From Candidatus Methanophagaceae archaeon (GTDB lineage: Archaea > Halobacteriota > Syntropharchaeia > Alkanophagales > Methanospirareceae): 32,000 bases of DNA. Under the pieces are notes generated by a model. That model had not been told where the DNA came from. It searched no databases and was given only the letters and a program-made list of their open reading frames with translations. The DNA lies in assembly GCA_003194425.1 (NCBI GenBank), contig PQXB01000001.1, forward strand, positions 1,112,728 to 1,144,727, in the 5' to 3' direction. Below, piece by piece: positions 5,520 through 22,378 of the stretch; the stretch's first letter is position 1, and each line of letters opens with the position of its first letter. Both the position numbers and the translations under genes were made by a program.

Positions 5520-6152
5520 ATGGAAACGGGCGAGAAGGTAATTATTGGGCTGGTCGTAGTGGTGACCCTCGGGGTCGTCGTTGGCGCTGTCGCTGGTGTC
5601 ACGGTTGTGATGCCGAAGATGATGGAGGAGATGCACAAACCAGAGGCTTGTGCCGAGAACTGTCACGAAATGGTGCCTTACTACGACTCGCTGCAAGAGT
5701 CGGCGCACGAAGGCGTAGATTGCCATGAATGTCACAAGCCCCACGGACCCGAAATCTTTATGGTTATGGGACATGCCCTGCACCACGCGGAAGGTATGGT
5801 AGTGGGAATGACAGAAGGTAAGAGTTCCGAAGAGATTTTTGAGGAGATGGCAGAGGAAATAGAAGAGAAACCGCCCGCGTCGCCGAAGAGGGAAATCTGC
5901 GAGGAATGCCACAAGCCAGGAGGCGGCGAAGGTGAAGTCAGGGCTGCGTCAGAGCAGATTGCAGACCCCAAGATTTCGTGCTTCAAGTGCCACTCTTCAA
6001 TCTTGCACGAGGCACACCCGATTGCAGAATACAGTGCTTACGAAAGCCCGGACTACGGCGAATTCAGCTGTGTCGCCTGCCACAACGACCACGATGTGAA
6101 TGTCAAGGAAGAGACCTGTGGCACTTGCCACCCACCGGAGAAACATCCGTAA
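5520..6152 (+). CDS. Membrane-anchored multihaem cytochrome c, NapC/NirT/NrfH-like N-terminal module
   Basis: 210 aa. N-terminal TM helix, then CAENCHEM...Y..L..SAH..VDCHECHKPH, which resembles the NapC/NirT pattern. Five CXXCH motifs plus one CX3CH. Confidence 0.85.
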   Translation: METGEKVIIGLVVVVTLGVVVGAVAGVTVVMPKMMEEMHKPEACAENCHEMVPYYDSLQESAHEGVDCHECHKPHGPEIFMVMGHALHHAEGMVVGMTEGKSSEEIFEEMAEEIEEKPPASPKREICEECHKPGGGEGEVRAASEQIADPKISCFKCHSSILHEAHPIAEYSAYESPDYGEFSCVACHNDHDVNVKEETCGTCHPPEKHP

Positions 6153-6155
6153 TTT

Positions 6156-8309
6156 TTAATTTAATTTATTTCTCCGGTTTTTATTTTTTCCCTGCTCGGT
6201 TTTTCCCTGCTCGGTTCTGAGCTCGCTGCAGAGCAGAAGAAGCATTCCTACAGACATTAAGAGAACCCCTGCCCAGACGAGCCAAATTAAGGGGACTTTC
6301 TTTACGACGACGACTGCGTCTTTTGGCTGAAGTTTTTCTCCGGCTGCTACGCCTGTAAGAGCGTAGAACATCGCGTCTGAACTGGAGTTTGTGGCGTGCA
6401 TTGAAATGTAGAGGTCTCCTGCGAGGCTGGAAAGAATTAAAGGCTCAGAGACCACGCCGTAGTTTGCGTAGTAAGACATCCACAAGGACTCGGGCTGCTG
6501 GGAGGGGGCAGTCCCTCCACCCTCTCCTCCTTCTCCTCCTTCTCCTCCTTCTCCTCCTTCTCCTCCTTCTCCCTCCTCGCCCCCCGCGTTAACAACAACC
6601 AAATCCAGTTTTAGAGCCGAGTGTTCGGGTCCTGCGAAAGAATGCTTTGGGTAAAAAACGCTTCCTGTGCCTGCGTAGGTCGTGAAATTGTGGAATTCCA
6701 ACCTCGTCCCCAAGACCTCAACAACAGAATCGGGGCTCACGAGAATGTTACCGCTCTCTTCTTCCGCCGCGGAACTGACAAAGACGCCTACTAAAATGAC
6801 GACGACTGCGAGGTGCACGAACGTTTTCCCCCACGCCCTCGTGCTCGTCATTGTGCTCGTCCTCGTGCTCGTCCTCGTGCTCGTCCTCGTGCCCGTGCCC
6901 TTCGTGCCGCTGCGAGAACGAGAAGCGACGGCAACCCCTGCACCGGCAGCGAGGAGCAGCGGAAGTCCGAAGTTCGCGAGTGGGTTCGGCGTTGGCTGCC
7001 CCAACCACGCTAAAACCGCCCCTACGCTCAGCACTGCTCCAAGTAACACCACAAAACTCCTCATTTTCTCCCTGTCCCCTCCCTTGCCACCCCAAGCAGC
7101 GGCGGTGTTGCAGCCCAGCAGAGCCGCGACGAAGGCGAGCGTGAACGGGTAGCACCACTTGTTGTAGAATTCCACGCTCGTGGTCAGTGGGTTCTCGGAG
7201 AAGAAGCCACCGAGAATTGGCGCCGCGTCACCGAGAAAGCAGACGAACAGCAAGAACACGAGCGACCAGAACGCTGCAAAAACCGAGACCGAGTAGAGCG
7301 AAGAAGTGTCGAGGTCAAAATTGTAGAGCGGTCGGTTCGCCCTCGCAGCGAGGTAGAAAAAGTAGAGAACGACGCAGAAGCCAAAGCCCAGCAGCACGGG
7401 TTCGACTGGCGACTCTCCAAACGCGTGCACCGACTCTAACAACCCCCCCCGTGTCAGCGCAGTAGCGAAAATAATCATAAAAAAAGTAGCCAGGAGCAGT
7501 AGTTCTCTCCCCAAATCCTTCCTCCCCGCAGGCAAGTGAAAATACGCAGTGAGAGCGAGCCAGGGCAGCAAAGAAGCCGTCTCCACAGGGTCCCAAGCCC
7601 AGTACCCGCCCCACCCCAGCACTTCGTAAGACCACCACCCGCCGAGAGCGATTCCGAGCGTCAGAAACAGCCACGCCGCGTAAAGAGAAATTTTCAGCGT
7701 CCTTCTTTCCGCCCCCTCTGCCCCTCCTCCTGCTCCCCCTGCTTCCCCTTTTTTCATCCCCGCGAGCGTCAGTGCGAACGCGAAGAAGACAAACGCGTAG
7801 CCCAGAAAAACGACCGGTGGGTGAACGAGCACCCAAAAAGTCTGCAACAGCGGGTTTAACCCCGCTCCTTCTGGCGGTGTAAAAGGCAGAATCTCGAACG
7901 GGCTCTTCAGTAGAACGAGGAGGACCAGAAAAATTAGGAAACTGTCCAAGATTTTGTAAGAAGTTGCACGGTTCTCTGCCCCTGCTCCTACCCTTCTAAA
8001 CCTGTACGCGAAATAAAGCAGGGCAAAGACGAACGCCACAAAGAGCATTGACCCGCTGCTACCGATCCAGGGGTCGCCGAGTTTGTACTGAACCGCCAAG
8101 CTTGAGGAACTGTAGGCGTAAACTTCGCTCAACCAGAAACTGTCCGTCACGAACGCAGTCGTGAGCCTGAAGTAGGACGCAACAATTAGCACGCAAGCCA
8201 GAAAAAAGAGTTCCTGCTTCGTTCTCTCTCTCGCCCTCAAGAAGAGCAGAGCAAAATCAGCCAACAGCAAAACACAAGCCAAAATTAGAAAAAAATCACC
8301 TGTTTCCAT
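6156..8309 (-). CDS. ccmF: Cytochrome c-type biogenesis protein CcmF (haem lyase)
   Basis: 717 aa polytopic protein. WWD motif WGGYWAWDPVE, conserved His contexts VLVHPP, AYFH and LLESVHAF. Carries low-complexity insertions. Confidence 0.9.
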   Translation of the reverse strand: METGDFFLILACVLLLADFALLFLRARERTKQELFFLACVLIVASYFRLTTAFVTDSFWLSEVYAYSSSSLAVQYKLGDPWIGSSGSMLFVAFVFALLYFAYRFRRVGAGAENRATSYKILDSFLIFLVLLVLLKSPFEILPFTPPEGAGLNPLLQTFWVLVHPPVVFLGYAFVFFAFALTLAGMKKGEAGGAGGGAEGAERRTLKISLYAAWLFLTLGIALGGWWSYEVLGWGGYWAWDPVETASLLPWLALTAYFHLPAGRKDLGRELLLLATFFMIIFATALTRGGLLESVHAFGESPVEPVLLGFGFCVVLYFFYLAARANRPLYNFDLDTSSLYSVSVFAAFWSLVFLLFVCFLGDAAPILGGFFSENPLTTSVEFYNKWCYPFTLAFVAALLGCNTAAAWGGKGGDREKMRSFVVLLGAVLSVGAVLAWLGQPTPNPLANFGLPLLLAAGAGVAVASRSRSGTKGTGTRTSTRTSTRTSTMTSTRAWGKTFVHLAVVVILVGVFVSSAAEEESGNILVSPDSVVEVLGTRLEFHNFTTYAGTGSVFYPKHSFAGPEHSALKLDLVVVNAGGEEGEGGEGGEGGEGGEGGEGGGTAPSQQPESLWMSYYANYGVVSEPLILSSLAGDLYISMHATNSSSDAMFYALTGVAAGEKLQPKDAVVVVKKVPLIWLVWAGVLLMSVGMLLLLCSELRTEQGKTEQGKNKNRRNKLN
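6186..6215. repeat. 15-nt x2 tandem repeat in the ccmF 3' end (encodes TEQGK TEQGK)
   Basis: ttttccctgctcggt occurs twice in tandem. Confidence 0.85.
6524..6572. repeat. 9-nt tandem repeat (ctcctcctt x5+) in ccmF, encodes (GEG)n
   Basis: Read directly. In frame on the minus strand. Confidence 0.9.
6841..6900. repeat. 12-nt tandem repeat (gtgctcgtcctc, 3 perfect and 2 variant copies) in ccmF, encodes (TRTS)n
   Basis: Read directly. In frame on the minus strand. Confidence 0.9.
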
Positions 8310-8312
8310 TTT

Positions 8313-8804
8313 TTATTTTTCGTTCCCCTCGTTCCCCAATTCCCAAATCACGACCTGTGCAGCACTCGCTAACACCCCTCCTCTTTCGTCCACCACCCGC
8401 ACGACAACCTTCACTGCGTCCCCCTTTTTCGGCTCCCTGCCCCGGTCAAAACCGAGCACAAAGTCGTAAGTCCCACTCCCCTTGAACTTCTCTGTCGCCC
8501 AGTAACTAACGCCCCCTGCTCCCGAATTAATTATCGCTTTTGCGTCCACGCTTGGAAACCCCGCGGAACTGCCTTTTGGACTTTCTAACGGGCTGACCGT
8601 GTCCTGTTCTACGCTAACGATTTCAACTGCCACTCCGCTCTCTCCTCCCTGTCCTGCTTCTCCCCCGTCAGTCGAGGAAACCTCTACCTTTGCCTGTAAT
8701 TTTACGACCGGGACCTCTTCCAAACTTACGCAGCCACTCGCGAAAATCAGACCAAAAACTGCAGCCGTAACACCGAGAAACGCAAAAATATTTTTATTTT
8801 TCAT
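8313..8804 (-). CDS. Putative lipoprotein of unknown function
   Basis: MKNKNIFAFLGVTAAVFGLIFASGC is a signal peptide plus lipobox. Beta-rich C-terminus. Its stop lies 3 nt from the ccmF start. Alternative in-frame starts at 8816 and 8858; the 8858 ATG overlaps the upstream cytochrome stop as ATGA. Confidence 0.6.
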   Translation of the reverse strand: MKNKNIFAFLGVTAAVFGLIFASGCVSLEEVPVVKLQAKVEVSSTDGGEAGQGGESGVAVEIVSVEQDTVSPLESPKGSSAGFPSVDAKAIINSGAGGVSYWATEKFKGSGTYDFVLGFDRGREPKKGDAVKVVVRVVDERGGVLASAAQVVIWELGNEGNEK

Positions 8805-8816
8805 CCGCTCTCTCAT

Positions 8817-8852
8817 TCTCCTTCCCCCGCTCCTTCTCCTTCCCCCGCTCCT
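8817..8852. repeat. 18-nt x2 tandem repeat (tctccttcccccgctcct)
   Basis: Lies between the cytochrome stop and the lipoprotein signal peptide. It would encode RRSGGR x2 if the 8858 start is used. Confidence 0.85.
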
Positions 8853-8854
8853 TC

Positions 8855-9754
8855 TCATTCTCCTTCCCCTTCCCCTTCCACTTCTACTTCCCCTTCTCCC
8901 TCTCCCTTGCCCGTCAAAATGCAAGCCTTCAGCGACTTCAAAATGTTCAAAATCGTGGGATATTTCTCCTCCTCTTCCCGCCCAACCCTCGCAGGCACAA
9001 GCACACCTTCTTTCATTTTGTAGCCTTCCTCTTTGTATTTTAGCCCAAACGAGCCGTGGCAGGCGACGCACAAACTCCCTATCTTGTCGCCGTGAATTGA
9101 GTGAGCGTCTCCGAGGTGGCAGGAGTTGCAGTTGGCTGTCTTCGGAATTGTTGGCTTCTTCTCTTTCTCTCCGCCGTGGCACGCCTGGCATTTCACACTC
9201 AAATGGACACGGTGGATTTCGTCGCACGGAATCTCCGCTCCCGCTCCTGCACTCTCGTCGGCAGTCCCGGCAGTCCCGGCAGCCCCGGCTACTGTCCCAC
9301 TTCCGATGTGACAGTCAACGCAGGTCTTCTCGCCGTGTGCAAGCCTTCTGATTTTTTCTCTGTCCACCGCCCCTCCTGTAGTGTAGTCTTTGTCGTGGCA
9401 CTTGCAAGACCCGAGTTTTGACTGCAACGCCTTCTCTGAGAGGAGCGAGACGTGGCACTGCCCGCATTCAGGCACAGGGTGCCACGAGCCGATAAAATTT
9501 TTTGAATTTGGCGGAATTACCTCTTGCACTCCCTCGTTTGCGGTCTCGCCTTTCTCTGTTTCTGCCCCTGCTCCTGCTCCTGCCCCTGCTCCTGCTCCTG
9601 CTCCTGCCCCTGCTCCTGCCCCTGCTCCTACCCCCGTTCCTGCACCTGTTTCTCCTGCACCTGTACCCGTGCTAGTACAGGCACAGAGGGACGCGGCGGC
9701 TGCTGCTGCGACGACTACAGCCGTGACGAAGAACGCAAGGATTTTGATTTTCAT
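8855..9754 (-). CDS. Multihaem cytochrome c, lipobox-bearing, with Gly/Ala tether
   Basis: The listed ORF was trimmed to the ATG at 9754 (MKIKILAFFVTAVVVAAAAAASLCAC). Five CXXCH motifs (CGQCH, CVDCH, CQACH, CNSCH, CVACH) plus one CKCH. Poly-GA linker and (GE)n tail. Confidence 0.8.
   Translation of the reverse strand: MKIKILAFFVTAVVVAAAAAASLCACTSTGTGAGETGAGTGVGAGAGAGAGAGAGAGAGAGAGAETEKGETANEGVQEVIPPNSKNFIGSWHPVPECGQCHVSLLSEKALQSKLGSCKCHDKDYTTGGAVDREKIRRLAHGEKTCVDCHIGSGTVAGAAGTAGTADESAGAGAEIPCDEIHRVHLSVKCQACHGGEKEKKPTIPKTANCNSCHLGDAHSIHGDKIGSLCVACHGSFGLKYKEEGYKMKEGVLVPARVGREEEEKYPTILNILKSLKACILTGKGEGEGEVEVEGEGEGE
9564..9629. repeat. Hexanucleotide repeat (tgctcc/tgcccc) encoding poly(Gly-Ala)
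   Basis: Read directly. In frame in the cytochrome linker. Confidence 0.9.
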
Positions 9755-9885
9755 CAGTTCATCTATTTGACGGATTAAATAAATAAAAATAAATAAAAAA
9801 ACCGATAATCTTAAATGGTCTCGGACGAGAGGATAAACAAAACAAGCGAGTAAGATTAAAAGGGATGAAATAAAGGAGTGAAAAG

Positions 9886-11259
9886 ATGAAGGGACTGGGA
9901 AGAGGCGTGTTAGTGGTCTTAACGCTGTTAGTGTTTTTCTTCTTTTCCGCTGCTGCCACACCCTCTCCCAGTGCCACTCTCTCTCCCACTGCTGCCACTC
10001 CCACTGCCACTGCTGCCACACCCTCTCCCACTGCTACTGCTACTGTTACGGGAACGATGCCGAAAGCGGTGGTTGTCTCTGATGTTCGGGGCTTGAACGA
10101 CTACGAAGTTGGGGAGAACTGTTTCACCCACGGAAACACGCTCAAAGTCTACACCGAACTGCAAGGAGTGAATTACGACGGTTTCGTTGTTGTGGATTTC
10201 TTCTTTATCATCGAAGACCCGCTTGGAAATGTCGTCGGGTTAGACCACGAGGAAGTAAGTCGCAGGAATTACGACCGCAACGTCTTTGTGGTCTACACAA
10301 AAACAATTCCTTCGTGGTGGAAGTACGGCAGGTACAAACTTCATATTTACGCCTACGACTGCTTGGACAAGGCGAAGATAAACGATTTAGAGCAGAGTCT
10401 GCTGGCTACTGTAGGTGTGTCAAAGTTGTTTGACGACGAGGATTATTTTGAAGACTTGGAAGACCTTTTTGGGGACGTCTGCGGAGGCGACAGGGACGAC
10501 CTTGAGGACTTGGACGTGATAAAAAAGTTCTCAAACTCGGTAGAAGAAATAACAACCCTAGAGTTCTTCGTGCGCAGCGAGGAGGAGCTAAAAGAGGCGA
10601 GTGAGGAGGGGGAAGGGGAAGAGGGAGAAGAAGGTGCAGCGGCGCTGCTGCGGTTCCCAAAAATTGAAGGCACTAATTTTGTGGTGTCTGGTGTGGTGCT
10701 CGACAAATTTAAGGTGCAGCCTGACGAGCCCGTTTCAATCTCGGTTACCGTAAAGAACGCGGGAACGAAGGGAACAGAACGGGTCAGGCTGGAAATAAAC
10801 GGTAAAAAAGAGGCTGAAGAATCTGTTACTTTGGACTACTTGGAATCCCGAACGCTCGTCTTTCAGGTGAAGAAGAGCCTCCCCGGGACCTACAAAACGA
10901 CCATTTCTGGCACCGAAATCGTGAAAATGTTCTTCGTTGAAGAACCGCGAGAATCTGTGAGCCCCCAGCGAGAGAGCGAGGAGGGAAAGGGTCTAACTTC
11001 TGAAACAGAGGGAGAGGAAGGGGGACAGGGAGGAGAGGTGGGGGAGGTGAGAGAGGAGGGAGAGGAGGGAGAGGGAGGAGAAGGAGGAGCTAAAAAGGAA
11101 AAAGTATCTTTTAAAAAATATCTTCTTGTCGGTGCTTTTATTGCAATTCTTGTGGTGGTCTTACTGCTTTTACGGTCACCCAGCATAAATCGGCTGCGTC
11201 TCGTTGCAATTCTCTTAATAATTCTGCCGCTCATTTTCATTCTTTTAAAGCTTGAATAA
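9886..11259 (+). CDS. Secreted, membrane-anchored surface protein with a CARDB-like domain
   Basis: 457 aa, SD aggagtga. Signal peptide, T/P/S/A-rich linker, CARDB-like segment VSISVTVKNAGTKGTERVRLEINGK, acidic GE-rich linker and C-terminal hydrophobic helices. Confidence 0.7.
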   Translation: MKGLGRGVLVVLTLLVFFFFSAAATPSPSATLSPTAATPTATAATPSPTATATVTGTMPKAVVVSDVRGLNDYEVGENCFTHGNTLKVYTELQGVNYDGFVVVDFFFIIEDPLGNVVGLDHEEVSRRNYDRNVFVVYTKTIPSWWKYGRYKLHIYAYDCLDKAKINDLEQSLLATVGVSKLFDDEDYFEDLEDLFGDVCGGDRDDLEDLDVIKKFSNSVEEITTLEFFVRSEEELKEASEEGEGEEGEEGAAALLRFPKIEGTNFVVSGVVLDKFKVQPDEPVSISVTVKNAGTKGTERVRLEINGKKEAEESVTLDYLESRTLVFQVKKSLPGTYKTTISGTEIVKMFFVEEPRESVSPQRESEEGKGLTSETEGEEGGQGGEVGEVREEGEEGEGGEGGAKKEKVSFKKYLLVGAFIAILVVVLLLLRSPSINRLRLVAILLIILPLIFILLKLE

Positions 11260-11273
11260 AAGTAGGTGAAAAT

Positions 11274-12335
11274 ATGAAAACAGGAGAGGGAGAAAAAGAG
11301 AAAGAAAGTAGCGTAAAGATTGTCCCTATCGGAATCAAGGTCGGGTCTCAAAATACCGTGATTACGACAAGCGATTGGACGGAGATTGAGACTACTTGCG
11401 TGAAAGAGCGGTCGAACCTAATAACAGGCGAGACCGAGTATATTGTCGGGAACGAGGCTGCGGAAATGTTCGGCGACGGAGCGGAATATATGTTGCGCGG
11501 TGGTCTTCCGGGCAACGAGGAAGAAGCAGACCTTTTACGGCGGTTCCTCGGTCGGCTCATCGAGAAATATGACTTGCCCGAAAATAGTTATGTAACTTAC
11601 GCAATTCCCGCCGTCGAGAGCGAGGTCGGAATAAACCTCTTCAAAAAAGTCGTCAGCCAAATTTCCATCGGCTGGAGCGGTAAAGAGATTTGGAACGATT
11701 CCTTTCTCGGCGCTTTGGCTCTTCCCGGCGGCATCGAAATCGTAGAAAAGACTTTTCTGGTGATAAACCTGGGCTCAACGACTACCGAAGTAGTCGCTGC
11801 TCGGAAGGGCGAGGTTCTCTTGAGCGCGGTAACAGGGGCGGTAAGCGGCGATTTGGTGGACAGGTGGGTAAAAAATGAAATCCTGAACGAGACGCGGGCA
11901 GCACTCAACATTGACCTCGCAACAGCACGGAAATACAAGGAGAAATACGCAAACCTGAAGTCGTGGGAGAACGTTCAGGAGTCGGTTCAACTCTTCAGGA
12001 AAGGGAAATCCAGCTTCAAGATCAGCGAGTGCATAATTAAGCCGATTGAAGATTATTTAGAGCGGCTCGCCGATTTCGTCTGCCTTGAGTTCCTTCCTGA
12101 ACTCGCAGAAACGAATTTCTCGGTCTACAAGCAGGTTCTTGCGAAGGAGTTCATTTTGGTCGGCGGAATGGTTGAAATTCCTGGACTGCGGGAGAAACTT
12201 GGGACAATTATGAGCAGCCAACTTGGAGCGAATGTCACGATGATTTGCCCCGAGAACCCTGTTGCGGCACCTGCGAAAGGGGCGTACACGCTTTCAAAAT
12301 ACCGGACAACGACAACGCAGGAGCAGGAAAAATGA
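11274..12335 (+). CDS. Actin/MreB/Hsp70-fold (ASKHA) protein, divergent
   Basis: 353 aa, SD aggtga 4 nt upstream. Motifs in order: phosphate-1 IGIKVGSQNT, phosphate-2 LVINLGSTTTEV, SGDLVD, adenosine ILVGGMVEIPGLREKL, connect-2 ENPVAAPAKGA. Confidence 0.7.
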   Translation: MKTGEGEKEKESSVKIVPIGIKVGSQNTVITTSDWTEIETTCVKERSNLITGETEYIVGNEAAEMFGDGAEYMLRGGLPGNEEEADLLRRFLGRLIEKYDLPENSYVTYAIPAVESEVGINLFKKVVSQISIGWSGKEIWNDSFLGALALPGGIEIVEKTFLVINLGSTTTEVVAARKGEVLLSAVTGAVSGDLVDRWVKNEILNETRAALNIDLATARKYKEKYANLKSWENVQESVQLFRKGKSSFKISECIIKPIEDYLERLADFVCLEFLPELAETNFSVYKQVLAKEFILVGGMVEIPGLREKLGTIMSSQLGANVTMICPENPVAAPAKGAYTLSKYRTTTTQEQEK

Positions 12336-12967
12336 GGTGGAACAGGTTAGCAAACATTGAGGAACGGTTGGAGAAATGGGACTCTCTCTTTCAGGAATTG
12401 AGCGTCTTTGCCAACGAGTTTATTCCAAATTTGCAGAGTTCTTACGAGGTTTTGAGCAGAAAAGTAGAAAAATTAGAGCGAGATTTAGTGGCAAGTGCAG
12501 AGGAGAAAAGAGAGTGGCAGGAGCAGGCGGTGGAGCAGGCGGTGGAGCAGTCGGTGGAGCAGGTGCTGGAGCAGGCGCTGGAGCAGGCGCAAGGAGAGAG
12601 GCAAGGGCAGGGGCAGGAAGAGTTACTCAACGAATTTGGCGAACTTAAGGAGAAAACAGCAGGCGAAGTCAGGGCTCTTAAACTGAAACTTGAAGCACTC
12701 GAGAACCAAGTGAGTTTCAAGAACTTGGAGAGAAGTGTGAGAGGTGCGAGCGGTGAAGAAGGAGAAAGAGGCAGCGTAGAAGGGCTGCAGGAGCTGCAGG
12801 AGATTAAAGCAACTCTCGGCGAAGTAAGCGAAATGGTTCAGAAGAACACGGACTCGATTGCAAAACTCGCAGCAGAAGTTCAGAACCTCTCTTCCACCCC
12901 TTCCACTGCAACGAGAAGAGTTGCTGTTCGGAAAGAAGGAAAGGTGAAATCTCCACGAATACTGTGA
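12332..12967 (+). CDS. Coiled-coil protein
   Basis: Its ATG at 12332 overlaps the upstream TGA (ATGA). Heptad-like E/K/L/Q-rich sequence. Contains the (EQAV)-type repeat. Confidence 0.7.
   Translation: MRWNRLANIEERLEKWDSLFQELSVFANEFIPNLQSSYEVLSRKVEKLERDLVASAEEKREWQEQAVEQAVEQSVEQVLEQALEQAQGERQGQGQEELLNEFGELKEKTAGEVRALKLKLEALENQVSFKNLERSVRGASGEEGERGSVEGLQELQEIKATLGEVSEMVQKNTDSIAKLAAEVQNLSSTPSTATRRVAVRKEGKVKSPRIL
12521..12592. repeat. 12-nt x6 tandem repeat (gagcaggcggtg and variants)
   Basis: Encodes EQAVEQAVEQSVEQVLEQALEQAQ in frame. Confidence 0.9.
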
Positions 12968-14487
12968 ACGGAAGAAGCAGCGTAGGGAAATTTGAAGAGT
13001 CCCGAAAACGCTTGTCCGACCTCGTAGAACGGTTTGAAGAACTAAAGCAGGACGGGGGGAGAGGGGATTTCGGTCCTGCACCAGAAGATTTGAGATTAGA
13101 AAATGTGGGCACAAAAATCTCTACTCATTTTCTACTCTTTATTCCTGTTTTTTTTTCAGTCTTGCTTTTCGTGCTACTACTCGGCAAGCACTACTCACAA
13201 CAGTTCTTTTACATTTTGTGGCTCTTGTTTTTGCCGGTCGCGGTGATGTCTTTTGCGGGCTTGTTAAAGGGCTCGTTAGAAGGCGCTGTAACTGTGCCAC
13301 TGGAAATTGCGGCTGCGGAAATGGGCGAGAAAAAAGTCGTCTTCCAAGTAACAACGACTGCTGCGACCTCTGCCTTGTTGGCGGTGGTCGAGAGCGTTCT
13401 GCTGCACGCACCCAAGTATTTGAGCGGGCGGTTCAGAATTGATGTTGTGCTGAAGGAGGGGGGAGAGGGAGAGGAGGAAGAGGGAGTTAAAAAATTGAGA
13501 GAGTTGGAGAGTAGCGGGAAAATAAACCTGCTTCTTCTTCCTGCGAACATTTCTTTAGTCGCTCTGCCGCAGAAATTGCCGATGAAAGTTTCTTGGACGA
13601 GGAGCAGGCTTAAGCACTACGCGGTCTTGAAACGGCGGGAGAAGGGCGAGAACACTGCAGACACTTTTGTCTGCCACTTGAGCGCGGAGACTTTGGTGGG
13701 CGAAGACACGGTTTTGGCGATTAAAGAGTTCGTTTTAGCGAGCAACGGCGAGGGGAAATTGGCTGCAGAGGCAGTGCTGACTTTTCCTTACGCAGGAAAC
13801 CTTCTCACCTTTTTCTGCGACGCACTGAGAACGGCGAACAACCTCTCGGCAAGAGGAGGGGCAGGAGCAGGAGGATTTACGGCACCGTTTCACGGGGCAG
13901 GGCTAGTGGTAAGGAGCGACGTAGAAGAGGAGATTGGGTGGTGGGGCGTTGAGAGTTCGGCAATGTTTGCGTCAGAATTTATAAAAAAATACGGCAGGAA
14001 GAAAAGCGGTTTCCTGCGAGGTAGGGTGTACGTGAAATCTGCAAAGAAGACACGAGAGTTGTTAGAGCAGCGAAGGAGGTGGTTTGTGAGGACGGTTTAC
14101 GAACTAAAGGGCTACGAGAGGAGAATGCGTCTTGAAATATTCGTAAAACTGCTTTCGTGGTTTATTTCGCCTTTTGCTCATCCGCTCGTGCTTCTTGCGG
14201 GTGTGGGGCTGATCAGGCTCTTCGCAGGCGAGACGCTACTTTCAGGGGTAGTGCCCTCAACTCTGCTCTCGCCGTTCGTTGCGTTTTGCTTCGCCGTGTT
14301 AATTTTTTGTTATTTTGTGGGGGTGTTAGAGAATTTAAAAGTGTCTCCGCGTGGGCAGGGGAAGGAGCGGATAAGAGAGTTGGTGAAGATATTTGGGCTG
14401 AGCCCCGTTCTGATTTGCGTTGCGACACTTGTAGAGTCTTTTAGCGTAATTTATGCGTTGTTTAAGCCTGAAGAAATTTTAGAATAA
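12964..14487 (+). CDS. Polytopic membrane protein with a GT2 (processive glycosyltransferase)-like layout
   Basis: Its GTG at 12964 overlaps the upstream TGA (GTGA). Two N-terminal TM helices, a cytoplasmic domain of about 260 aa, QRRRW (nt 14068-14082), then 3-4 C-terminal TM helices. Confidence 0.6.
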   Translation: MNGRSSVGKFEESRKRLSDLVERFEELKQDGGRGDFGPAPEDLRLENVGTKISTHFLLFIPVFFSVLLFVLLLGKHYSQQFFYILWLLFLPVAVMSFAGLLKGSLEGAVTVPLEIAAAEMGEKKVVFQVTTTAATSALLAVVESVLLHAPKYLSGRFRIDVVLKEGGEGEEEEGVKKLRELESSGKINLLLLPANISLVALPQKLPMKVSWTRSRLKHYAVLKRREKGENTADTFVCHLSAETLVGEDTVLAIKEFVLASNGEGKLAAEAVLTFPYAGNLLTFFCDALRTANNLSARGGAGAGGFTAPFHGAGLVVRSDVEEEIGWWGVESSAMFASEFIKKYGRKKSGFLRGRVYVKSAKKTRELLEQRRRWFVRTVYELKGYERRMRLEIFVKLLSWFISPFAHPLVLLAGVGLIRLFAGETLLSGVVPSTLLSPFVAFCFAVLIFCYFVGVLENLKVSPRGQGKERIRELVKIFGLSPVLICVATLVESFSVIYALFKPEEILE

Positions 14488-14491
14488 ACGG

Positions 14492-14518
14492 AGAAGTGTT
14501 AGAAGTGTTAGAAGTGTT
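14492..14518. repeat. 9-nt x3 tandem repeat (agaagtgtt)
   Basis: Read directly, 5 nt after the stop of the GT2-like gene. Confidence 0.9.
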
Positions 14519-14811
14519 ACCTGGAGGGAGCAAAATAAAAGGAAATAGGAATTACAACCGACATTGTGGATTCAACCAAATATTACAGGGGCGTGTCAAA
14601 TTAAGGTAAAGCCGATTCCTGCCACCTTTGCTCGTAAAGAAACATTCAGATACGACTCTTCTTTCGGGATTTGACATTTACAGGAATTTAAGTGCAGGCA
14701 TAAAGTCAGTAAATATTTCTCGCTCAAGTCAGTAGAGTTCTACGAGCTCTGCAGTTCAACACCCAACGCCTCGGGCAGTAAATCCCTCTCCTCCGCCTTT
14801 CCCTTGACTTT

Positions 14812-14859
14812 ACCACGAGCCTGACTCACCACAAGCCTGACACACCACAAGCCTGACTA
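14812..14859. repeat. 16-nt x3 tandem repeat (accacaagcctgacNN)
   Basis: Read directly. The last copy contains the acs stop codon (14857-14859). Confidence 0.85.
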
Positions 14860-17124
14860 GACTTTGTAGCCCGGTATTTTTTGCGGTCCCCTGTATTCTG
14901 TAGCCTTGGCAAGCTCCTTTAGGCATTCCGGGTTCTGTGCGGTGGTCATATCTCCGAGTGCTTCGTTCCGAACGAGACCCTTTAGAAATCGCCTTATTAT
15001 TTTCCCGCTCTCGGTCTTCGGCAGATCAGAAACATAGTAAGCGACCTCCGGAGTCGCCACCGGCCCCACCTTCTCCCGCACTGCCTTCACTATTTTCCTG
15101 TCCATTTCCGCTTTCTCTTTTTTATCTTTAAGCACGACGAAAAGAGCAGGCACCTCGCCTTTTATCGCGTTCGGCTTCCCGACAACTGCGACCTCCGCAA
15201 CCTCCTCCAAGCTACTTACCGCCTCCTCTACCTCGGCAGTGCCGAGCCTGTGCCCCGCGACTTCCATAACATCGTCAATCCTGCCAGTAATTTTTATCAG
15301 CGGCTGACCTCCGATTTCCCGCCCGATTTTTACTCCACCGTCACCCGCGAAATAAATCTCCGCACCGTATTCACTCCAGTATTCTCCCAAATATTTCGCG
15401 GGATTTTTGTAAATCCCCCTGAGCATAGAAGGAGCGTAAGGCGGTTTTACAACGAGGTACCCGGATTCTCCGACCTTCACCGGCTCTCCTGTCGCGTCCA
15501 AGACATCAAAACGCACTCCCGGCAGTGCAGGACCCGCAACGCCCGGAACGAACGGTCCTACGCCGGGAAGCGAGGACAAGAGAATTCCGCCGGTCTCGGT
15601 CTGCCAGTAAGTGTCCACCAAAGGACAGCGACGCTCTCCGATTTTCTCGAAAAACCACCGCCAAGTGTCAGGGTCGATTGGCTCGCCGACCGACGCCAAA
15701 AGTCGCAAGGACGAGAAGTCCCGCCCCGCGACCCATTTCTCGCCCGCGGCTCTTAACGCTCGCACTGCCGTCGGGGCGGTGTAAAAAACGGTTACTGCAT
15801 TTTCCTCAATTATTTTCCACCACCTGCTCGGGTTCGGGTAGTCCGGCGCACCCTCGTACCACAAAGTCGTCGCTCCAGCGAGCAACGGACCGTAAAGAGC
15901 GTAAGAATGCCCCGTTATCCAGCCAATGTCCGCGGTTGTCCAGAACAAGTCGGTGGGGTGCAGGTCGAAAACGAGTTTCATCGTCAACGCCACGCCAACG
16001 CTGTACGCCCCGCAGGAGTGCATTACCGCCTTCGGCTTGCCCGTCGTCCCAGAAGTGTAGAGCAGGAACGAAATGTCGTCAGAAGTGAGCGTCTCTGGGT
16101 CGCAGTAAGAAAAAGGCGTGTTTTTCATCAGTTCGTCGTAAAAGTAGTCTCTCCCTTCTTTCATCGCAACCTCGCCCTCGCCCTCTCCCTCGCCCTCGCC
16201 GCTGTCCTCTCCCTCGCCGCTGTCCTCTCCCTTTCCTTCACGCCCCTCGCGGTTCAGTCGCCGAACAACCACGCAACACTCTGCACCAACTTTCTCCAAA
16301 ACCGCACCCTCGTCAATCCGGTTTTTCAATTCTATCTTTTTCCCTCTTCGGTAGAAACCGTCTGCGGTGACAAGAATTTTGGAGCCCGCGTCTTCCATTC
16401 GCTCCCTAACCGCGTGAGGTGCAAATGCGGTGTAAACGATTGAGTGCAGCGCCCCAATTCGCTGGCAGGCTAAAGCGACCACTGCAGTCTCGGGAATCAT
16501 CGGCATCCAAACCGTCACGGGGCTTCCTTTCTTCACTCCGAGCCCCTTCAAAACATTTGCAAACTTGTTCACCTCCCTGTACAAGTCCAAGTAAGTCAAG
16601 ACCCTCTGTGGTTCGTTTTCGGGCTCAGGCACCCACAGAATCGCTGCCTCGTTCCGCCGCTCCTCCAAATGCCGGTCAAGGCAGTTGTAGGACAGGTTCG
16701 TCTTGCCACCCACGAACCACTTGAAATACGGCGGGTTCAGTTCCACGACCTTTCCTTCCTCTACTTTCTCTCCCTCCTTCCCTTCCTCTACTTTCTCTCC
16801 CTCCTTCCCTTCCTTCCTTTCCTCTCCTTCCTTCCCTTCCTCTACTTTCTCTCCCTCCTTTCCTTCCTTCCCCTCCTTCCTCCCCTCCCACACCTCAAAC
16901 CAGTCGATTAACGCCCTGCCCTGCTCTGCCCAGAAGCCTTCGGGGTCTCTGCTCGCCTCTTCGTAAATCCGCTCGTCGCTGAAGTACGCCTTCTCTTTCA
17001 TCTCCGCCGTCGGCCAGTACACTCTTCTGCTTTCACCGCCGTCCTCCTCCGTCGCTTCTTCCTTCTCCTCCGTCACCCACTGCTTCCCCGACTCCCTCAA
17101 CCTGCCTCCAACATTTACGCCCAT
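14857..17124 (-). CDS. acs: Acetyl-CoA synthetase (AMP-forming)
   Basis: 755 aa. YTSGTTGKPKAV, WQTETGG, PKTESGKIIRR. Two low-complexity insertions. Confidence 0.92.
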   Translation of the reverse strand: MGVNVGGRLRESGKQWVTEEKEEATEEDGGESRRVYWPTAEMKEKAYFSDERIYEEASRDPEGFWAEQGRALIDWFEVWEGRKEGKEGKEGEKVEEGKEGEERKEGKEGEKVEEGKEGEKVEEGKVVELNPPYFKWFVGGKTNLSYNCLDRHLEERRNEAAILWVPEPENEPQRVLTYLDLYREVNKFANVLKGLGVKKGSPVTVWMPMIPETAVVALACQRIGALHSIVYTAFAPHAVRERMEDAGSKILVTADGFYRRGKKIELKNRIDEGAVLEKVGAECCVVVRRLNREGREGKGEDSGEGEDSGEGEGEGEGEVAMKEGRDYFYDELMKNTPFSYCDPETLTSDDISFLLYTSGTTGKPKAVMHSCGAYSVGVALTMKLVFDLHPTDLFWTTADIGWITGHSYALYGPLLAGATTLWYEGAPDYPNPSRWWKIIEENAVTVFYTAPTAVRALRAAGEKWVAGRDFSSLRLLASVGEPIDPDTWRWFFEKIGERRCPLVDTYWQTETGGILLSSLPGVGPFVPGVAGPALPGVRFDVLDATGEPVKVGESGYLVVKPPYAPSMLRGIYKNPAKYLGEYWSEYGAEIYFAGDGGVKIGREIGGQPLIKITGRIDDVMEVAGHRLGTAEVEEAVSSLEEVAEVAVVGKPNAIKGEVPALFVVLKDKKEKAEMDRKIVKAVREKVGPVATPEVAYYVSDLPKTESGKIIRRFLKGLVRNEALGDMTTAQNPECLKELAKATEYRGPQKIPGYKV
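16171..16230. repeat. GE/DSGEGE-encoding repeat in acs, including an 18-nt x2 unit
   Basis: ctcgccgctgtcctctcc at 16195-16212 and again at 16213-16230. Confidence 0.85.
16750..16893. repeat. Polypyrimidine (plus strand) repeat tract of about 140 nt in acs
   Basis: Recurring cttcctctactttctctccctcctt. Encodes EGKEGKEGEKVEEGK-type repeats on the minus strand. Confidence 0.85.
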
Positions 17125-17187: not shown

Positions 17188-17703
17188 ATGAAAAAAGAGT
17201 TGAAGGTAGTGCCGATAAAGAACGGGACGGTCATTGACCACATTTCAGCGGGGCAGGCGTTGAACGTGCTGCGGATTTTGGAAATAAACGCGAAGAACAC
17301 AAGGACAAGCACAAGGACGAGCACAAGGACGGGCGCGGCGGGTGGTGCGGTCGTGAGCGTGCTGATGAATGTGCGGAGCAAGAAAATGGGGCGGAAGGAC
17401 ATTGTAAAGGTGGAAGACCGGGAGTTAAAGTCGGAGGAGGTGGACAAAATCGCTCTAATCGCGCCGAACGCGAAAATAAACATTATTCGTGATTTTGAGG
17501 TAGTTGCAAAGCACAAGGTCTTCCTTCCAAACTCAATCGAGGGAATCATAAAATGCGCGAACCCTAACTGCATCTCCAACGCCGAGCAGGAGCCGGTTGT
17601 CTCAAGGTTCGTGACTGTTAGTGGTAGCCGCGGCGGGGTTCAACCGCGGTTCAGGTGCTTTTTCTGCGAGCGGTTGATCGAGGACGTGTCTGGGTATTTG
17701 TAA
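17188..17703 (+). CDS. pyrI: Aspartate carbamoyltransferase regulatory chain
   Basis: [24 protein letters not shown], Zn-site cysteines CANPNC...CFFC. Insertion [17 protein letters not shown]. Confidence 0.9.
17299..17334. repeat. 12-nt x3 tandem repeat (acaaggacRRgc) in pyrI, encodes (TRTS)n
   Basis: Read directly, in frame. Confidence 0.9.
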
Positions 17704-18042: not shown

Positions 18043-18936
18043 TTCGTAAGTCTCGCTAACCTCGGGCTGCAGGAAAATCTTCCGAACGAGTTCGTAGTTC
18101 TCCACTAATTCCTCAAGGGCGTGGTGCTGTTGCTTCTGCGTTTGTTGCTTCTGCGTTTGTTGCTTCTGCGTTTGCTTCTGCGTTTTCACGAGTTTCAAGG
18201 CTCTCTTGACACCGACGCCTTTAACGCCGGGGTTGAAGTCGGTGCCGACCAAAATTGCGAGGTCAACGAGCTGCTCACGGGTCAGCCCGAGCCGCTCCTC
18301 GACCGCTCGCAGTTCAACGACCTCGAGCGCTGCCTTTCTTCTCGGTGCGCCAGCTGCGGTGAGATTTCGGACTACAACTGGTGCGCCGAAGAGCAGCGAG
18401 TCGTAGTCCTGCGAGGAGACGAGTTCGGCGTCGCCCCGCTGAACCAAGAAAGCCGCCTGAGCCTCGCCCTCTCCGGCTGCCTGCACGCAGGGGACGCCGA
18501 GGTAGGTTAAAAGCCTCTTCGCGTCCTCAACGACCGCTGCGTCTACTTTCGCGGACGCCTGGGCGTACTTGAAGGATTTCTCTGGCTCTTCAGGAAAGAG
18601 AACCTTCGCCTCCTCCCACTTCCGCAACGCCTCCGCTCTCCGCTCCGCCCTCGCTTTAAGAACCTCCGCCTTCAACTCCGACGGCTTGCCGTCAAAGACG
18701 AAGACGAGTTTTAACCCCTTCGCCACGAGGTGGGTAGTGCGGTAAATCAGGCCCGAGAGGTGCGAGGTCGTTCTGCCTGCGGAGTCGGTGAGTGGCGTTC
18801 CGTCGGGCTGCCGAATCGTGCTCAGGAATTGGTAGAGCGTGTTCTGTGCGTCGACCGCGACTACTCTGCCCGTGAGTGCTTCCAAGCTCGTCGGTCTTGA
18901 CCCTGCTCTAATTATTTCGCCAATCTTTGCCCCCAT
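17893..18936 (-). CDS. fen: Flap endonuclease 1
   Basis: The listed ORF was trimmed to the ATG at 18936. MGAKIGEII...VAVDAQNTLYQFLSTIRQPDGTPLTDSAGRTTSHLSGL...VFVFDGKP. Insertion TQKQTQKQQTQKQQTQKQQ. Confidence 0.9.
   Translation of the reverse strand: MGAKIGEIIRAGSRPTSLEALTGRVVAVDAQNTLYQFLSTIRQPDGTPLTDSAGRTTSHLSGLIYRTTHLVAKGLKLVFVFDGKPSELKAEVLKARAERRAEALRKWEEAKVLFPEEPEKSFKYAQASAKVDAAVVEDAKRLLTYLGVPCVQAAGEGEAQAAFLVQRGDAELVSSQDYDSLLFGAPVVVRNLTAAGAPRRKAALEVVELRAVEERLGLTREQLVDLAILVGTDFNPGVKGVGVKRALKLVKTQKQTQKQQTQKQQTQKQQHHALEELVENYELVRKIFLQPEVSETYELNWGAVEAERVKEFLCEEHDFSVERVSKVLEKISQTARQTRQKRIEQWF
18129..18186. repeat. 15-nt tandem repeat (gttgcttctgcgttt, 3 copies plus a partial) in fen
   Basis: Read directly, in frame on the minus strand. 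Confidence 0.9.
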
Positions 18937-20175: not shown

Positions 20176-21423
20176 TCAAATCAAGAACCTCGCGAGACTG
20201 TAGAGGAATCTCGAATTCCTTTTTATCACTTCCCTCATAAACGCTCGCTCGCTGTACTCTTTCATTCTAACCTCCCCATCCAAAGCCTGAAAAAAACGAG
20301 CCAGCTCTTGGCTGCTCAGTCCCAACACAACATTTTTCATTTTTAGCCCCACCCACAAGACCCTGCCAAACTCCTTTCTCCACCTCTTCTCGTACTCTCG
20401 CAGCCTCCTCTTAGAGAAGTTCTTTTCACGCACAGCCTTTGCAACGACCTCGCCCGCAATCTCGCCTGCCTGGATCGCGTACAAAATCCCACCTCCTGTA
20501 AACGGGTTGACGTGCCTCGCAGCGTCGCCTACCAAAACAAGCCCGTCTGCTGTCGTCTCACGAAGCGGACCGCTCAGTGGCACGGCACCGCAAATCTCTG
20601 CCACCACTTTCCCTGCTCCGTCTGGAAACCTCTCTCTCACGAAAGCCCGCAGGTAGTCAAACGCACGGTGCTTCTCGCCTGACACGTCGCCGCCAATTCC
20701 GACCCCCACGTTCGCACAGTCGCCCCCTTTTGGAAAGACCCAAGCGTAGCCTTTCGGTGCAATTTCGTCGCCAAAAAAGAGCTCGCAGTAGTCCCTGTTA
20801 AATTCAATTCCGCAGATTAAAAACTCCGCACAGGTCGCAACTTCGGAAGGTCGCAGCCGCGTCTCGATCCCCGCCCACCTGCCTACTCTCGACTCCACGC
20901 CGTCTGCAGCCACAACAACATCTGCAGAAATGCGAACTCCCTCGCCTTCTCCTGCCTCTGCACTTCTTCCTGCCTCGGTACTCCTCGCGTAAACGCCCTT
21001 CACAGTCCCTGCACCTCCCTCACTCGTTCCCACTCCCGCCTCACGAACCAACCCGCAAGCCTGCGTTCTCACTCGCACCTCTGCACCTGCGTCCGCCGCC
21101 TGTTGTGCCAGAAACCTGTCAAACAGCCTCCGATCAAGCACGTAGCCAGCCTCTGCTGTTCCTTCACCAGTCAAGACAAACTTCGTACCGTTAGGACCGT
21201 AAGTAGTAATCCCGCTCACTCCAGCGCAGACCCACTTACGGTCAACCTCAACGAACCGCTCCAGCTCCTTGCTCACGCCCTCGGCACATTTCACAGGCGT
21301 GCCGATTTCCGCGTTCCGCTCGATTAAAAGAACCTCTGCTCCTCTCTCTGCAGCTGTCTTCGCTGCCACGCTGCCTGCCGGTCCTGCCCCTACTACTACT
21401 ACCTCGTACTTTTCTTTTCTCAT
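20176..21423 (-). CDS. Geranylgeranyl reductase family flavoprotein
   Basis: YEVVVVGAGPAGSVAAKTAAERGAEVLLIER FAD fold, GDAARHVNPFTGGGI. Its start overlaps the upstream stop (ATGA). Confidence 0.85.
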   Translation of the reverse strand: MRKEKYEVVVVGAGPAGSVAAKTAAERGAEVLLIERNAEIGTPVKCAEGVSKELERFVEVDRKWVCAGVSGITTYGPNGTKFVLTGEGTAEAGYVLDRRLFDRFLAQQAADAGAEVRVRTQACGLVREAGVGTSEGGAGTVKGVYARSTEAGRSAEAGEGEGVRISADVVVAADGVESRVGRWAGIETRLRPSEVATCAEFLICGIEFNRDYCELFFGDEIAPKGYAWVFPKGGDCANVGVGIGGDVSGEKHRAFDYLRAFVRERFPDGAGKVVAEICGAVPLSGPLRETTADGLVLVGDAARHVNPFTGGGILYAIQAGEIAGEVVAKAVREKNFSKRRLREYEKRWRKEFGRVLWVGLKMKNVVLGLSSQELARFFQALDGEVRMKEYSERAFMREVIKRNSRFLYSLARFLI

Positions 21424-22133
21424 TTTCCTAAACCTCTAACAACGAACAAAACGCCCAAGACAACCAAAAAGACCGCGACAACGAGCATTGCCAACTCGTA
21501 CCTCCTGCCGACAAAGAAATTCCTTCCCCTCGCGAAAGAGACGGAGACGAATGAGTACCACGCAAAATCTGAGAGAAAATGCCCAAAAACTACTAAAACA
21601 ATTCCCTTCAGTGCGAGCCACTTAAACCCGCTCAAGAGCACCGGGTAGCCCACTGCAAACCACCACGGAAGAAAAGAAGGGTTTAGAGCAGTAAGCAGGA
21701 AACCCCCGAAAATTGTACTGTTGTACTTCCTCTCCCCCTCCCGCTCTCTCTCCTTCTCCCACTCTCTCTCATTCTCCCGCTCCTTTTCTCGCACCTTGCT
21801 CGCTCTTGACCTTGCCTCCCGTGACTCTTTAACAACAAAGAAAGACATCAAAATAAGTGCAACGCCGCCCAGCAAGAAAATCCAGCGTTCAAACTGTCCG
21901 AAATATTTCTCCAACTCAAGCCCCAAAACTACAAGCCCCACAATCAGCGGTAACTCAACCGAGAAGTGCCCAATCATTGTAAGCGGTCCTGAGAGCGCTC
22001 CCTTCTCCCCTTTCTTCAGCGTCTCCGAGACGACAAAAGCAAAGAGCGGTCCCGGAATTAACGCCCCGCTCAGTCCTGTCAGAAATCCTACGCCTACCAG
22101 AGACGCCCCGATGACGAGTGCCGAAGGTGTCAT
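21420..22133 (-). CDS. LysE/RhtB-type translocator family membrane protein
   Basis: Trimmed to the ATG at 22133 (MTPSALVIGASLVGVGFLTGLSGALIPGPLFAFV). The central loop carries an ER-rich insertion (about nt 21725-21800). Confidence 0.6.
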   Translation of the reverse strand: MTPSALVIGASLVGVGFLTGLSGALIPGPLFAFVVSETLKKGEKGALSGPLTMIGHFSVELPLIVGLVVLGLELEKYFGQFERWIFLLGGVALILMSFFVVKESREARSRASKVREKERENEREWEKEREREGERKYNSTIFGGFLLTALNPSFLPWWFAVGYPVLLSGFKWLALKGIVLVVFGHFLSDFAWYSFVSVSFARGRNFFVGRRYELAMLVVAVFLVVLGVLFVVRGLGK

Positions 22134-22210
22134 TTTTATTTGATTTTTAGCAGATAAAGTAAAGAAAGAGAAAAAGATAAGAATAAGAAGAGCGAAGGAA
22201 AGACAGAAAG

Positions 22211-22378
22211 ATGAAAATCCTAAGGTTAGTGGTGCTGGCGGTGGTTGGACTCTTCTTCTTGCTACCCATTCTCTACGGAAGTGCGCCACTTCCAGAGAAC
22301 CTCTCACCCTCTGAGATCGGCGATTTCCTCGCAGGCTACCTGCGTTACTGGCTGGCTGCGTTGAGAAGGCTGTTTTAG
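22211..22378 (+). CDS. Candidate 55-aa small membrane/secreted protein
   Basis: MKILRLVVLAVVGLFFLLPILYGSAPLPENLSPSEIGDFLAGYLRYWLAALRRLF. It is below the ORF-track length cut-off and I translated it by hand. Confidence 0.3.
   Translation: MKILRLVVLAVVGLFFLLPILYGSAPLPENLSPSEIGDFLAGYLRYWLAALRRLF

Follow-up and report, generated by a model that had tools for sequence, protein, structure and literature searches.

The question raised by this locus is what an archaeal actin homologue does in an operon with a membrane protein that resembles a polysaccharide synthase. The locus occupies positions 9886 to 14487 of a 32,000-nucleotide stretch of contig PQXB01000001.1 (hereafter the window), whose host is a thermophilic, methane-oxidising archaeon (ANME-1, Methanophagales). 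It is composed of four open reading frames (ORFs) on the plus strand: gene 1 (9886..11259, 457 amino acids [aa]), predicted to encode an exported protein, gene 2 (11274..12335, 353 aa), encoding a salactin-family actin homologue, gene 3 (12332..12967, 211 aa), encoding a coiled-coil protein, and gene 4 (12964..14487, 507 aa), encoding a polytopic protein with the predicted fold of glycosyltransferase family 2 (GT2). The initial annotation, made from the sequence alone, had proposed a cytoskeleton-positioned machine for envelope or exopolymer synthesis, by analogy with MreB. The account that we put forward, which as a whole could equally well turn out right or wrong, is that the salactin and an adaptor form the core of the system, that its third component is interchangeable, and that in this lineage the third component is a dead synthase-fold protein serving as a membrane anchor or receptor.

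A salactin with a conserved coiled-coil partner

By sequence comparison gene 2 is a salactin-family actin-fold filament protein. It matches the Pfam family Salactin (PF25229) over positions 2-332 of the 335 of the profile (E=9.6e-93, 311.3 bits, gathering score 27.1) and the NCBIfam salactin model NF053533 with 368.5 bits, under the equivalog cut-off of 400, and it has a charged N-terminal tail. The best PDB match of a profile made from gene 2 and its homologues is MamK (5jyg, E=8e-17), with MreB next. The actin fold seen in the initial annotation is confirmed by these matches. The protein is neither an orphan nor MreB-like; it belongs to a known family, and MamK is its nearest solved relative. 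The nucleotide-binding motifs align with those of MamK, with a Lys in phosphate-1 (GIKVGS, K22 region, 11334-11342, plus strand) and an Asn in phosphate-2 (INLGSTTTE, 11763-11789, plus strand) where MamK, MreB and actin have Asp. Both residues are invariant across the salactin homologues aligned here, down to 24-30% identity. The closest relatives of gene 2 are Archaeoglobi proteins (58-66% identity), and in a neighbour-joining tree it falls in a polytomy with the Archaeoglobi clades, by which an acquisition from Archaeoglobi is not resolved. The ratio of nonsynonymous to synonymous polymorphism between strains (pN/pS) is 0.13 for this gene.

The salactin of Halobacterium salinarum (VNG0153C) is a dynamically unstable actin which grows from the poles (Zheng et al. 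2023, PMC10746226). It affects DNA partitioning at low phosphate and has no role in cell shape (PMC10746226). That study also records homologues among Archaeoglobi and Methanophagales; it finds synteny in Haloarchaea to be poor and gives no partner (PMC10746226).

A homologue of gene 3 lies directly 3' of salactin in all Archaeoglobi loci fetched whose contig continues beyond the actin gene; these loci represent at least 15 distinct lineages. It is this adjacency of actin and coiled-coil gene, and not their packing, that exceeds chance. The Archaeoglobi homologues are 150-275 aa long and are detected by BLASTP (E=1e-12 to the JdFR-42 orthologue, locus L002) as well as by phmmer; no Pfam or NCBIfam family covers gene 3. 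Since 18 orthologues begin at a position aligned with the ATG at 12332, the start of gene 3 was placed there and not at the start of the longer ORF from TTG-12245. The coiled-coil protein of about 210 aa described in the initial annotation is thus recovered, with 211 aa.

An alignment of nineteen sequences divides this partner protein into three parts. The first is a conserved N-terminal motif (residues 11-35, ERLEKWDSLFQELSVFANEFIPNLQ, 12362..12436, plus strand; family pattern L.KWD.LF.EL......P..E), in which W399, L402, F403, L406 and P415, in the numbering of the fused alignment, are invariant. The second is a coil very variable in length and sequence, which in gene 3 contains an in-frame 12-nt repeat (12520-12589) giving rise to strain length variants of 207, 211 or 213 aa. 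The third is an invariant C-terminus: the partner of the window ends with the hexapeptide KSPRIL-COOH (12947..12964, plus strand), and (K/R)SPR(I/L)L terminates 19/19 orthologues despite an overall identity of about 25%. Pfam and NCBIfam profile searches found no ribbon-helix-helix or other DNA-binding domain in the partner. Its architecture, by analogy, is probably that of a dedicated and conserved filament adaptor linked to salactin. In arcadin-2 the hydrophobic groove of crenactin is bound by a C-terminal peptide which is conserved although the linker before it is not (PMC5173319), and following the examples of arcadin-2 and ParR (PMC5173319) KSPRIL is a candidate actin-groove-binding peptide which would dock on salactin.

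The third operon position in relatives

Among the Archaeoglobi, at least 13 distinct lineages have as third gene one for a MinD/ParA-type ATPase of 250-275 aa, with the Walker A motif SGKGGVGKT. A helical N-extension of about 30 aa is conserved in these ATPases, and the family that they match best is archaeal MinD, with scores of 100-110 bits that stay below the cut-off. In one Archaeoglobaceae clade the MinD-like gene is followed by a gene for a TadC/FlaJ-like polytopic protein of 731-737 aa (L008, 10548-12743; equivalents in L013, L016, L022 and L024), composed of a cytoplasmic non-TadC N-domain of about 190 aa and a membrane domain, with neither a secretion ATPase nor a pilin gene nearby. 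Another lineage is without MinD, and there the partner is directly followed by a protein of 239-244 aa made of the same N-domain and a hydrophobic end (L043, 2889-3608; L045, 1572-2306). Locus L027 has the salactin and partner pair only.

Compared with the Archaeoglobi triad, the window has the partner directly downstream of salactin, with both the N-terminal head motif and the (K/R)SPR(I/L)L terminus, whereas the third gene is not of MinD type, and tblastn found no MinD/ParA homologue within the 32 kb. The GT2-like gene 4 and gene 1 were seen only in one ANME-1 species-level lineage. The four-gene module of the initial annotation therefore holds as a conserved unit for the pair of genes 2 and 3, and not for genes 1 and 4.

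In a clade of Archaeoglobaceae (L008-L010, L012, L013, L023, L024 and L038) the salactin/partner/MinD block lies directly beside the phosphate uptake genes pstSCAB-phoU and a PhoU-domain regulator, located upstream of salactin, an adjacency which echoes the low-phosphate-only phenotype of H. salinarum salactin mutants (PMC10746226).

The scans for distant salactin loci covered metagenomes and genomes and yielded the same ANME-1 species, Archaeoglobi and three distant actins; haloarchaeal and methanogen loci were outside this survey. The three distant salactin-like actins (L029, 4271-5272, on a Methanoperedenaceae contig; L046, 5986-6969; L047, 1077-2108) have 24-30% identity and the same Lys and Asn motifs. 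Their contexts differ: one lies near an Orc1/Cdc6-like gene, possibly on a mobile element, and another is followed by genes for three overlapping small secreted or anchored proteins. At these three loci neither the coiled-coil partner nor MinD is present.

A synthase fold with a degenerate active site

Gene 4 matches the Pfam family Glyco_trans_2_3 (PF13632, E=2e-10, 41.1 bits, gathering score 27). Word-indexed homologue searches with gene 4 alone and with its family profile returned only the query's own cluster, and phmmer against the PDB sequences gave zero matches; a full HMMER scan for relatives found 189 representatives at E<1e-3, the best with 38% identity. This immediate family is uncharacterised and has no NCBIfam name. 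Its profile matches BcsA (E=6e-8), in an alignment which spans TED and QxxRW. The AlphaFold2 (AF2) model, based on an alignment of 23 representatives (pLDDT 78.5, pTM 0.82), begins with a low-confidence N-terminal helix and two transmembrane (TM) helices; the GT-A domain comes next, and then the interface helix and roughly four additional TM helices. The top Foldseek matches of this model are the hyaluronan synthases (HAS) of a Chlorella virus (CvHAS) and Xenopus (XlHAS1), BcsA and plant CesA (E=3e-9 to 1e-7, TM-score 0.43-0.47), and identity to the solved enzymes is 10-16%. As modelled, gene 4 is a GT-A fold with a TM bundle and an interface helix, of the processive GT2 synthase type, and the GT2-like assignment made earlier from topology and the QRRRW motif is borne out.

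The active site tells a different story. The family consensus reads D-E-G, HLDDDT, GLHGEH, IGWDFG..EDAxF and QRRRW, and the corresponding motifs of gene 4 are K-E-G, HLSAET, FHGAG, IGW-WG..ESSAMF and QRRRW. Residue counts over 149 family representatives show that the replaced positions are 98-99% acidic. In the nucleotide-binding D(E/D)G motif, K164 (13453..13455, plus strand) stands where 130/133 aligned representatives have Asp or Glu. S240-A241-E242 (13681..13689, plus strand), where a beta-strand (E234-239) of the AF2 model ends, takes the place of DxD, position 240 being Asp in 143/144 and position 241 Asp or Glu in 141/144. E330-S331-S332 (13951..13959, plus strand) takes the place of (T)ED; the family ED aligns with the T-E-D of BcsA, and its Asp, present in 143/145, is Ser332 here. 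The acceptor-binding motif Q(Q/R)xRW is kept as QRRRW (residues 369-373, 14068..14082, plus strand). Three of the four canonical acidic catalytic residues are missing from gene 4: the Asp that binds uridine, the leading Asp of DxD and the Asp of (T)ED that acts as catalytic base.

The degenerate gene is maintained. Its protein is 100% identical to PXF51826.1 and shares 99% identity or more with proteins from ANME-1 ex4572_4 and from other Methanophagales metagenome-assembled genomes. Among fifteen strain variants (at least 99% identity) the degenerate motifs are fixed in 15/15 and the protein is full length (505-507 aa) in 14/15, the fifteenth being a partial record of 425 aa; no frameshifts were found. 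There are 7 synonymous against 4 nonsynonymous polymorphic codons, with about 3 times fewer synonymous sites, which gives a pN/pS of 0.18. The ORF is intact and under purifying selection, and because the catalytic residues are lost at the same time, gene 4 is, as far as its sequence tells, most likely a pseudo-glycosyltransferase kept for a non-catalytic role. The nearest relative with intact catalytic residues (38% identity) is found beside a Wzy_C gene on a bacterial-looking contig, and neither the homologue searches nor the HMMER scan found close archaeal homologues outside this species.

The N-terminal tail of gene 4, about 55 aa, should be cytoplasmic, since in the model two TM helices separate it from the cytoplasmic GT-A domain; this agrees with the cytoplasmic tail of the initial annotation. 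A predicted helix in the tail (residues 9-33, KFEESRKRLSDLVERFEELKQDGGR, 12988..13062, plus strand) is weakly like the N-extension of the Archaeoglobi MinD-like ATPases. Against a hidden Markov model (HMM) of that extension the tail scores 10.0 bits, a value reached by 0/2000 shuffles. Among 484 unique N-terminal 56-mers gene 4 ranks 5th of the non-MinD sequences (E=0.014), behind three TadC-like proteins and one partner protein, so that all five are products of salactin operons; none of the other 149 GT2 family members is among these best matches. In the reciprocal search with an HMM of the TadC-like N-termini, the MinD-like proteins and gene 4 rank first, at E>0.1 and with 5.1 bits for gene 4. 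The similarity is no more than suggestive of a possible docking helix which gene 4 would share with the MinD-like and TadC-like N-termini.

Organisation of the operon and gene 1

The four ORFs are packed as the initial annotation had described. Fourteen nucleotides separate the stop codon of gene 1 (TAA, 11257-11259) from the ATG of gene 2 at 11274, and they contain a Shine-Dalgarno (SD)-like AGGTGA (11264..11269, plus strand) 4 nt before this ATG. Genes 2 and 3 overlap by ATGA (12332-12335) and genes 3 and 4 by GTGA (12964-12967). The SD of gene 4 is poorly placed (GGTGA, 16 nt upstream), and together with the GTGA overlap this implies re-initiation at gene 4 by ribosomes coming from gene 3. 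Overlaps of a few nucleotides are also present at other places in the window (4 nt between 21420-22307 and 20176-21423, 7 nt between 30236-30793 and 28932-30242), so that tight packing by itself is ordinary operon evidence. Upstream lies an AT-rich divergent intergenic region of 128 nt (9758..9885) between a multihaem cytochrome gene on the minus strand and gene 1, a likely promoter region, and the next gene 3' of gene 4 is the convergent acetyl-CoA synthetase gene acs (14857-17124, minus strand). Given the packing of the ORFs, the convergent gene downstream and the divergent AT-rich region upstream, genes 1-4 look like one transcription unit. A bacterial promoter and terminator scan gave nothing above shuffles, its models being bacterial and not applicable to archaea.

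Gene 1 is, by its sequence features, an exported and membrane-anchored protein. A hydrophobic helix at the N-terminus is followed by a T/P-rich linker, and the sequence further contains beta-rich segments, low-complexity acidic G/E repeats and, at the C-terminus, two hydrophobic helices. Single-sequence AF2 prediction of the protein is unusable (pLDDT 41), with only helices 4-21, 409-429 and 434-455 moderately confident. Export and anchoring are as annotated initially, and the CARDB label given to the same protein is weak. Residues 277-336 (10714..10893, plus strand) could form a single CARDB-like beta-sandwich, and the match to Pfam CARDB (PF07705) is below threshold (E=0.11, 13.1 bits, cut-off 22.7). 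Pairwise comparison with two repeats of a genuine CARDB protein of the window (28932-30242, minus strand) gives weak E values of 0.018 and 0.045, and a CARDB-like domain may yet be present. The pN/pS of gene 1 is 0.62, and its membership of the functional unit is uncertain.

The protein used as comparator is a CARDB/NPCBM_assoc surface protein with three repeats, encoded in a separate minus-strand cluster (26390-30793) which is unrelated to the operon and further contains a MarR/DUF7343 regulator and two MMPL-family half-transporters.

Membrane anchor, passenger or synthase

The mechanism that we propose starts from the pair. Salactin and its coiled-coil partner are inherited together in Archaeoglobi and in this ANME-1 lineage, and the terminal peptide of the adaptor would dock on salactin, by analogy with the systems cited above. 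The third position is interchangeable, taken by a MinD/ParA ATPase, by MinD together with a TadC/FlaJ-like protein, by a short membrane protein with the TadC-like N-domain, or by nothing. In this ANME-1 species it is filled by a protein of cellulose/hyaluronan-synthase fold, which most likely no longer polymerises sugar and would act as membrane anchor or receptor, through its cytoplasmic N-tail, its dead GT-A domain or both, and the adaptor would couple dynamic salactin filaments to it. All physical interactions in this scheme, and the anchoring role of gene 4, we infer from the comparisons above.

Several observations weigh against this account. The association of gene 1 and the GT2-like gene is seen in one species-level lineage only (at least 99% identity), so that the ANME-1 arrangement has no evolutionary replication. 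The polymorphism counts of gene 4 are small. Two acidic residues, E242 and E330, are still present in its active site, and residual or altered catalysis may persist. The match of the N-tail is not significant against a background of full-length proteins from all ORFs (E about 7). Finally, the search for MinD covered the 32-kb window, and another part of the ANME-1 genome may hold a MinD-like gene; what is seen at the third position should then not be called replacement.

A serious though rather doubtful alternative is that salactin and its partner are a cytoplasmic system for positioning or DNA partitioning, and that genes 1 and 4 are unrelated genes which happen to be co-transcribed with it. 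In its favour, only the pair of genes 2 and 3 is conserved, genes 1 and 4 are lineage-specific, the pair stands alone in L027, and 4-nt overlaps are common in this genome. A partition role has been proposed for H. salinarum salactin, a MinD/ParA-type third gene in Archaeoglobi is consistent with it, and the pstSCAB-phoU neighbourhood recalls the low-phosphate DNA-partition phenotype (PMC10746226). What the passenger explanation does not account for is the translation of gene 4 by re-initiation from gene 3, implied by the GTGA overlap, the repeated presence at the third position of membrane-associated proteins with similar N-termini, and the purifying selection on a dead enzyme, which needs a non-enzymatic role. 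Signs of a partition locus are missing as well. No iterated centromere (parC-like) repeats were found upstream of the salactin genes in the window and in five Archaeoglobi loci, where two-copy chance repeats are all that occurs (in the region 9758..9885 the single repeat is a two-copy 12-mer), and no plasmid-borne salactin was found by tblastn in PLSDB.

The guided synthase of the initial annotation, in which actin and adaptor would position an active processive GT2 enzyme that makes an envelope or exopolymer and has the gene 1 product as its partner outside the cell (cf. MreB or BcsA-BcsB), we consider unlikely. It has in its favour that the predicted fold and topology of gene 4 match hyaluronan and cellulose synthases, that QRRRW, the H-G motif and the TM channel helices are kept, that the exported, C-terminally anchored and beta-rich gene 1 product is loosely BcsB-like, and that the genes are tightly coupled. 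The uridine-binding, DxD and catalytic-base Asp residues are gone from gene 4, and for this reason an active exopolymer machine is improbable: K164, S240, A241 and S332 replace near-invariant acids, including the equivalent of the BcsA catalytic base. The module is also not co-conserved, and its actin is a salactin, nearer to MamK than to MreB and from a family without a shape role in H. salinarum. An MreB-like machine is not supported; a looser coupling of the actin system to a membrane or envelope component may still exist.

A further reading, in which gene 4 goes back to a horizontally acquired bacterial-type GT2 and is now a pseudogene in decay, its place in the operon being meaningless, is very improbable: the bacterial-looking contig of its nearest intact relative and the absence of close archaeal homologues outside the species would suit such an origin, but the ORF is full length in all but the partial record with no frameshift, synonymous codons exceed nonsynonymous ones, the AF2 model is confident and QRRRW is kept.

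Comparison with known systems

The gene 2 product resembles salactin PF25229 in its full-length HMM match, its charged N-terminal tail and in having MamK as the nearest protein outside the family. It differs from the salactin of H. salinarum, for which poor synteny in Haloarchaea and no partner were reported (PMC10746226), in that its gene belongs to a conserved pair or triad.

The crenactin-arcadin ("arcade") cluster of Thermoproteales likewise groups an archaeal actin gene with genes for its own dedicated partners (Izore et al. 2016, PMC5173319), and one of these, arcadin-4, is a coiled-coil protein as is gene 3. The two systems are unrelated in sequence, crenactin being eukaryote-like and salactin MamK/MreB-like, and neither a MinD-type nor a membrane-protein component occurs in the arcade cluster.

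In ParMRC (type II) an unstable actin is also encoded directly upstream of a small adaptor whose C-terminus binds the filament. There the adaptor is a ribbon-helix-helix protein working with centromere repeats. The operon described here is chromosomal. A ParMRC-type partition locus is not supported, as the searches described above found no DNA-binding domain, no centromere repeats and no plasmid copies.

MamK is the closest solved structure to gene 2, and MamK-MamJ offers the example of a filament with an acidic or repetitive adaptor which ties membrane-bound cargo. No magnetosome genes are present here, and the adaptor is unrelated to MamJ.

With the processive GT2 synthases (BcsA, class I HAS, CesA, chitin synthase) gene 4 shares, in its model and motifs, the GT-A domain, the interface helix, the TM bundle and Q(Q/R)xRW. 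It differs in the replacement of D, of the first Asp of DxD and of the Asp of TED, and in having neither PilZ nor BcsB.

The gene order of actin homologue, coiled-coil protein and polytopic membrane protein is superficially that of mreBCD. Unlike MreC, the partner has no TM segment or periplasmic domain, gene 4 is unrelated to MreD, and in H. salinarum cell shape does not depend on salactin.

Genomic setting and other features of the window

The same four-gene order is present in ten other contigs, all from the same ANME-1 species. The gene content around the operon, with CdhD, a NapC/NirT-type cytochrome, multihaem cytochromes and a CcmF-like protein, is in keeping with ANME-1. A cytochrome cluster (5520-10021), typical of ANME-1 extracellular electron transfer, adjoins the operon and contains a NapC/NirT-type tetrahaem protein (5520-6152), a CcmF-like haem lyase with low-complexity inserts (6156-8309, minus strand), a lipoprotein-like ORF and the multihaem c7/c3-type cytochrome (about 8855-9757, minus strand) which is divergent from gene 1.

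Short in-frame tandem repeats with a period of 6, 9, 12, 18 or 27 nt are found throughout the window (42 rows of TRF output in 32 kb), examples being 6515-6577, 6837-6896, 9950-10035, 11007-11089, 12520-12589, 16749-16889, 17298-17331 and 18128-18185. They encode low-complexity peptides such as (GE)n, (TRTS)n, (TQKQQ)n, (EGKEGEKVE)n and (AVEQ)n, and otherwise conserved proteins carry such inserts, including Acs, a FEN1-like protein, PyrI, the CcmF-like protein and products of the operon genes. Two further tandem repeats lie between gene 4 and acs, and neither has an Rfam match: AGAAGTGTT x3 (14492-14519), directly 3' of the gene 4 stop, and a 16-nt unit x2.9 (14812-14858) at the acs stop. Rfam gave zero matches in the whole window, and the families of PADLOC (anti-phage defence) and PHROGs (phage) gave coiled-coil noise only.

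Significance

To our knowledge salactin and volactin are the only non-Asgard, non-crenactin archaeal actins with live-cell data. Volactin filaments touch the membrane with their tips, and the factors that bind these filaments were given as unknown (PMC10869688); for both proteins binding partners, membrane anchors and cargo are stated to be unknown (PMC10746226, PMC10869688). The actin family was already known; the conserved partner, the MinD-type triad of Archaeoglobi and the pseudo-GT2 variant were not met with in the searchable literature, where queries on ANME-1 actins likewise returned nothing relevant. The analysis nominates a concrete partner family, conserved beside salactin outside Haloarchaea, whose usual third component is a MinD/ParA-type ATPase, for which one ANME-1 lineage has swapped in what is most likely a pseudo-glycosyltransferase. 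This provides testable handles on what salactin filaments pull or push, and a clean example of an enzyme fold kept after catalysis was lost; a new kind of machine is not revealed by it.

A wider proposal can be made tentatively: salactin might have a dedicated adaptor which docks via KSPRIL and recruits interchangeable membrane partners, whether MinD-type, TadC-like or a dead synthase, through a shared N-terminal amphipathic helix. If this is true, archaea would have repeatedly repurposed polytopic machinery proteins as anchors or nucleators for an unstable actin, which could explain the pole-anchored and membrane-tip-anchored behaviour of salactin and volactin.

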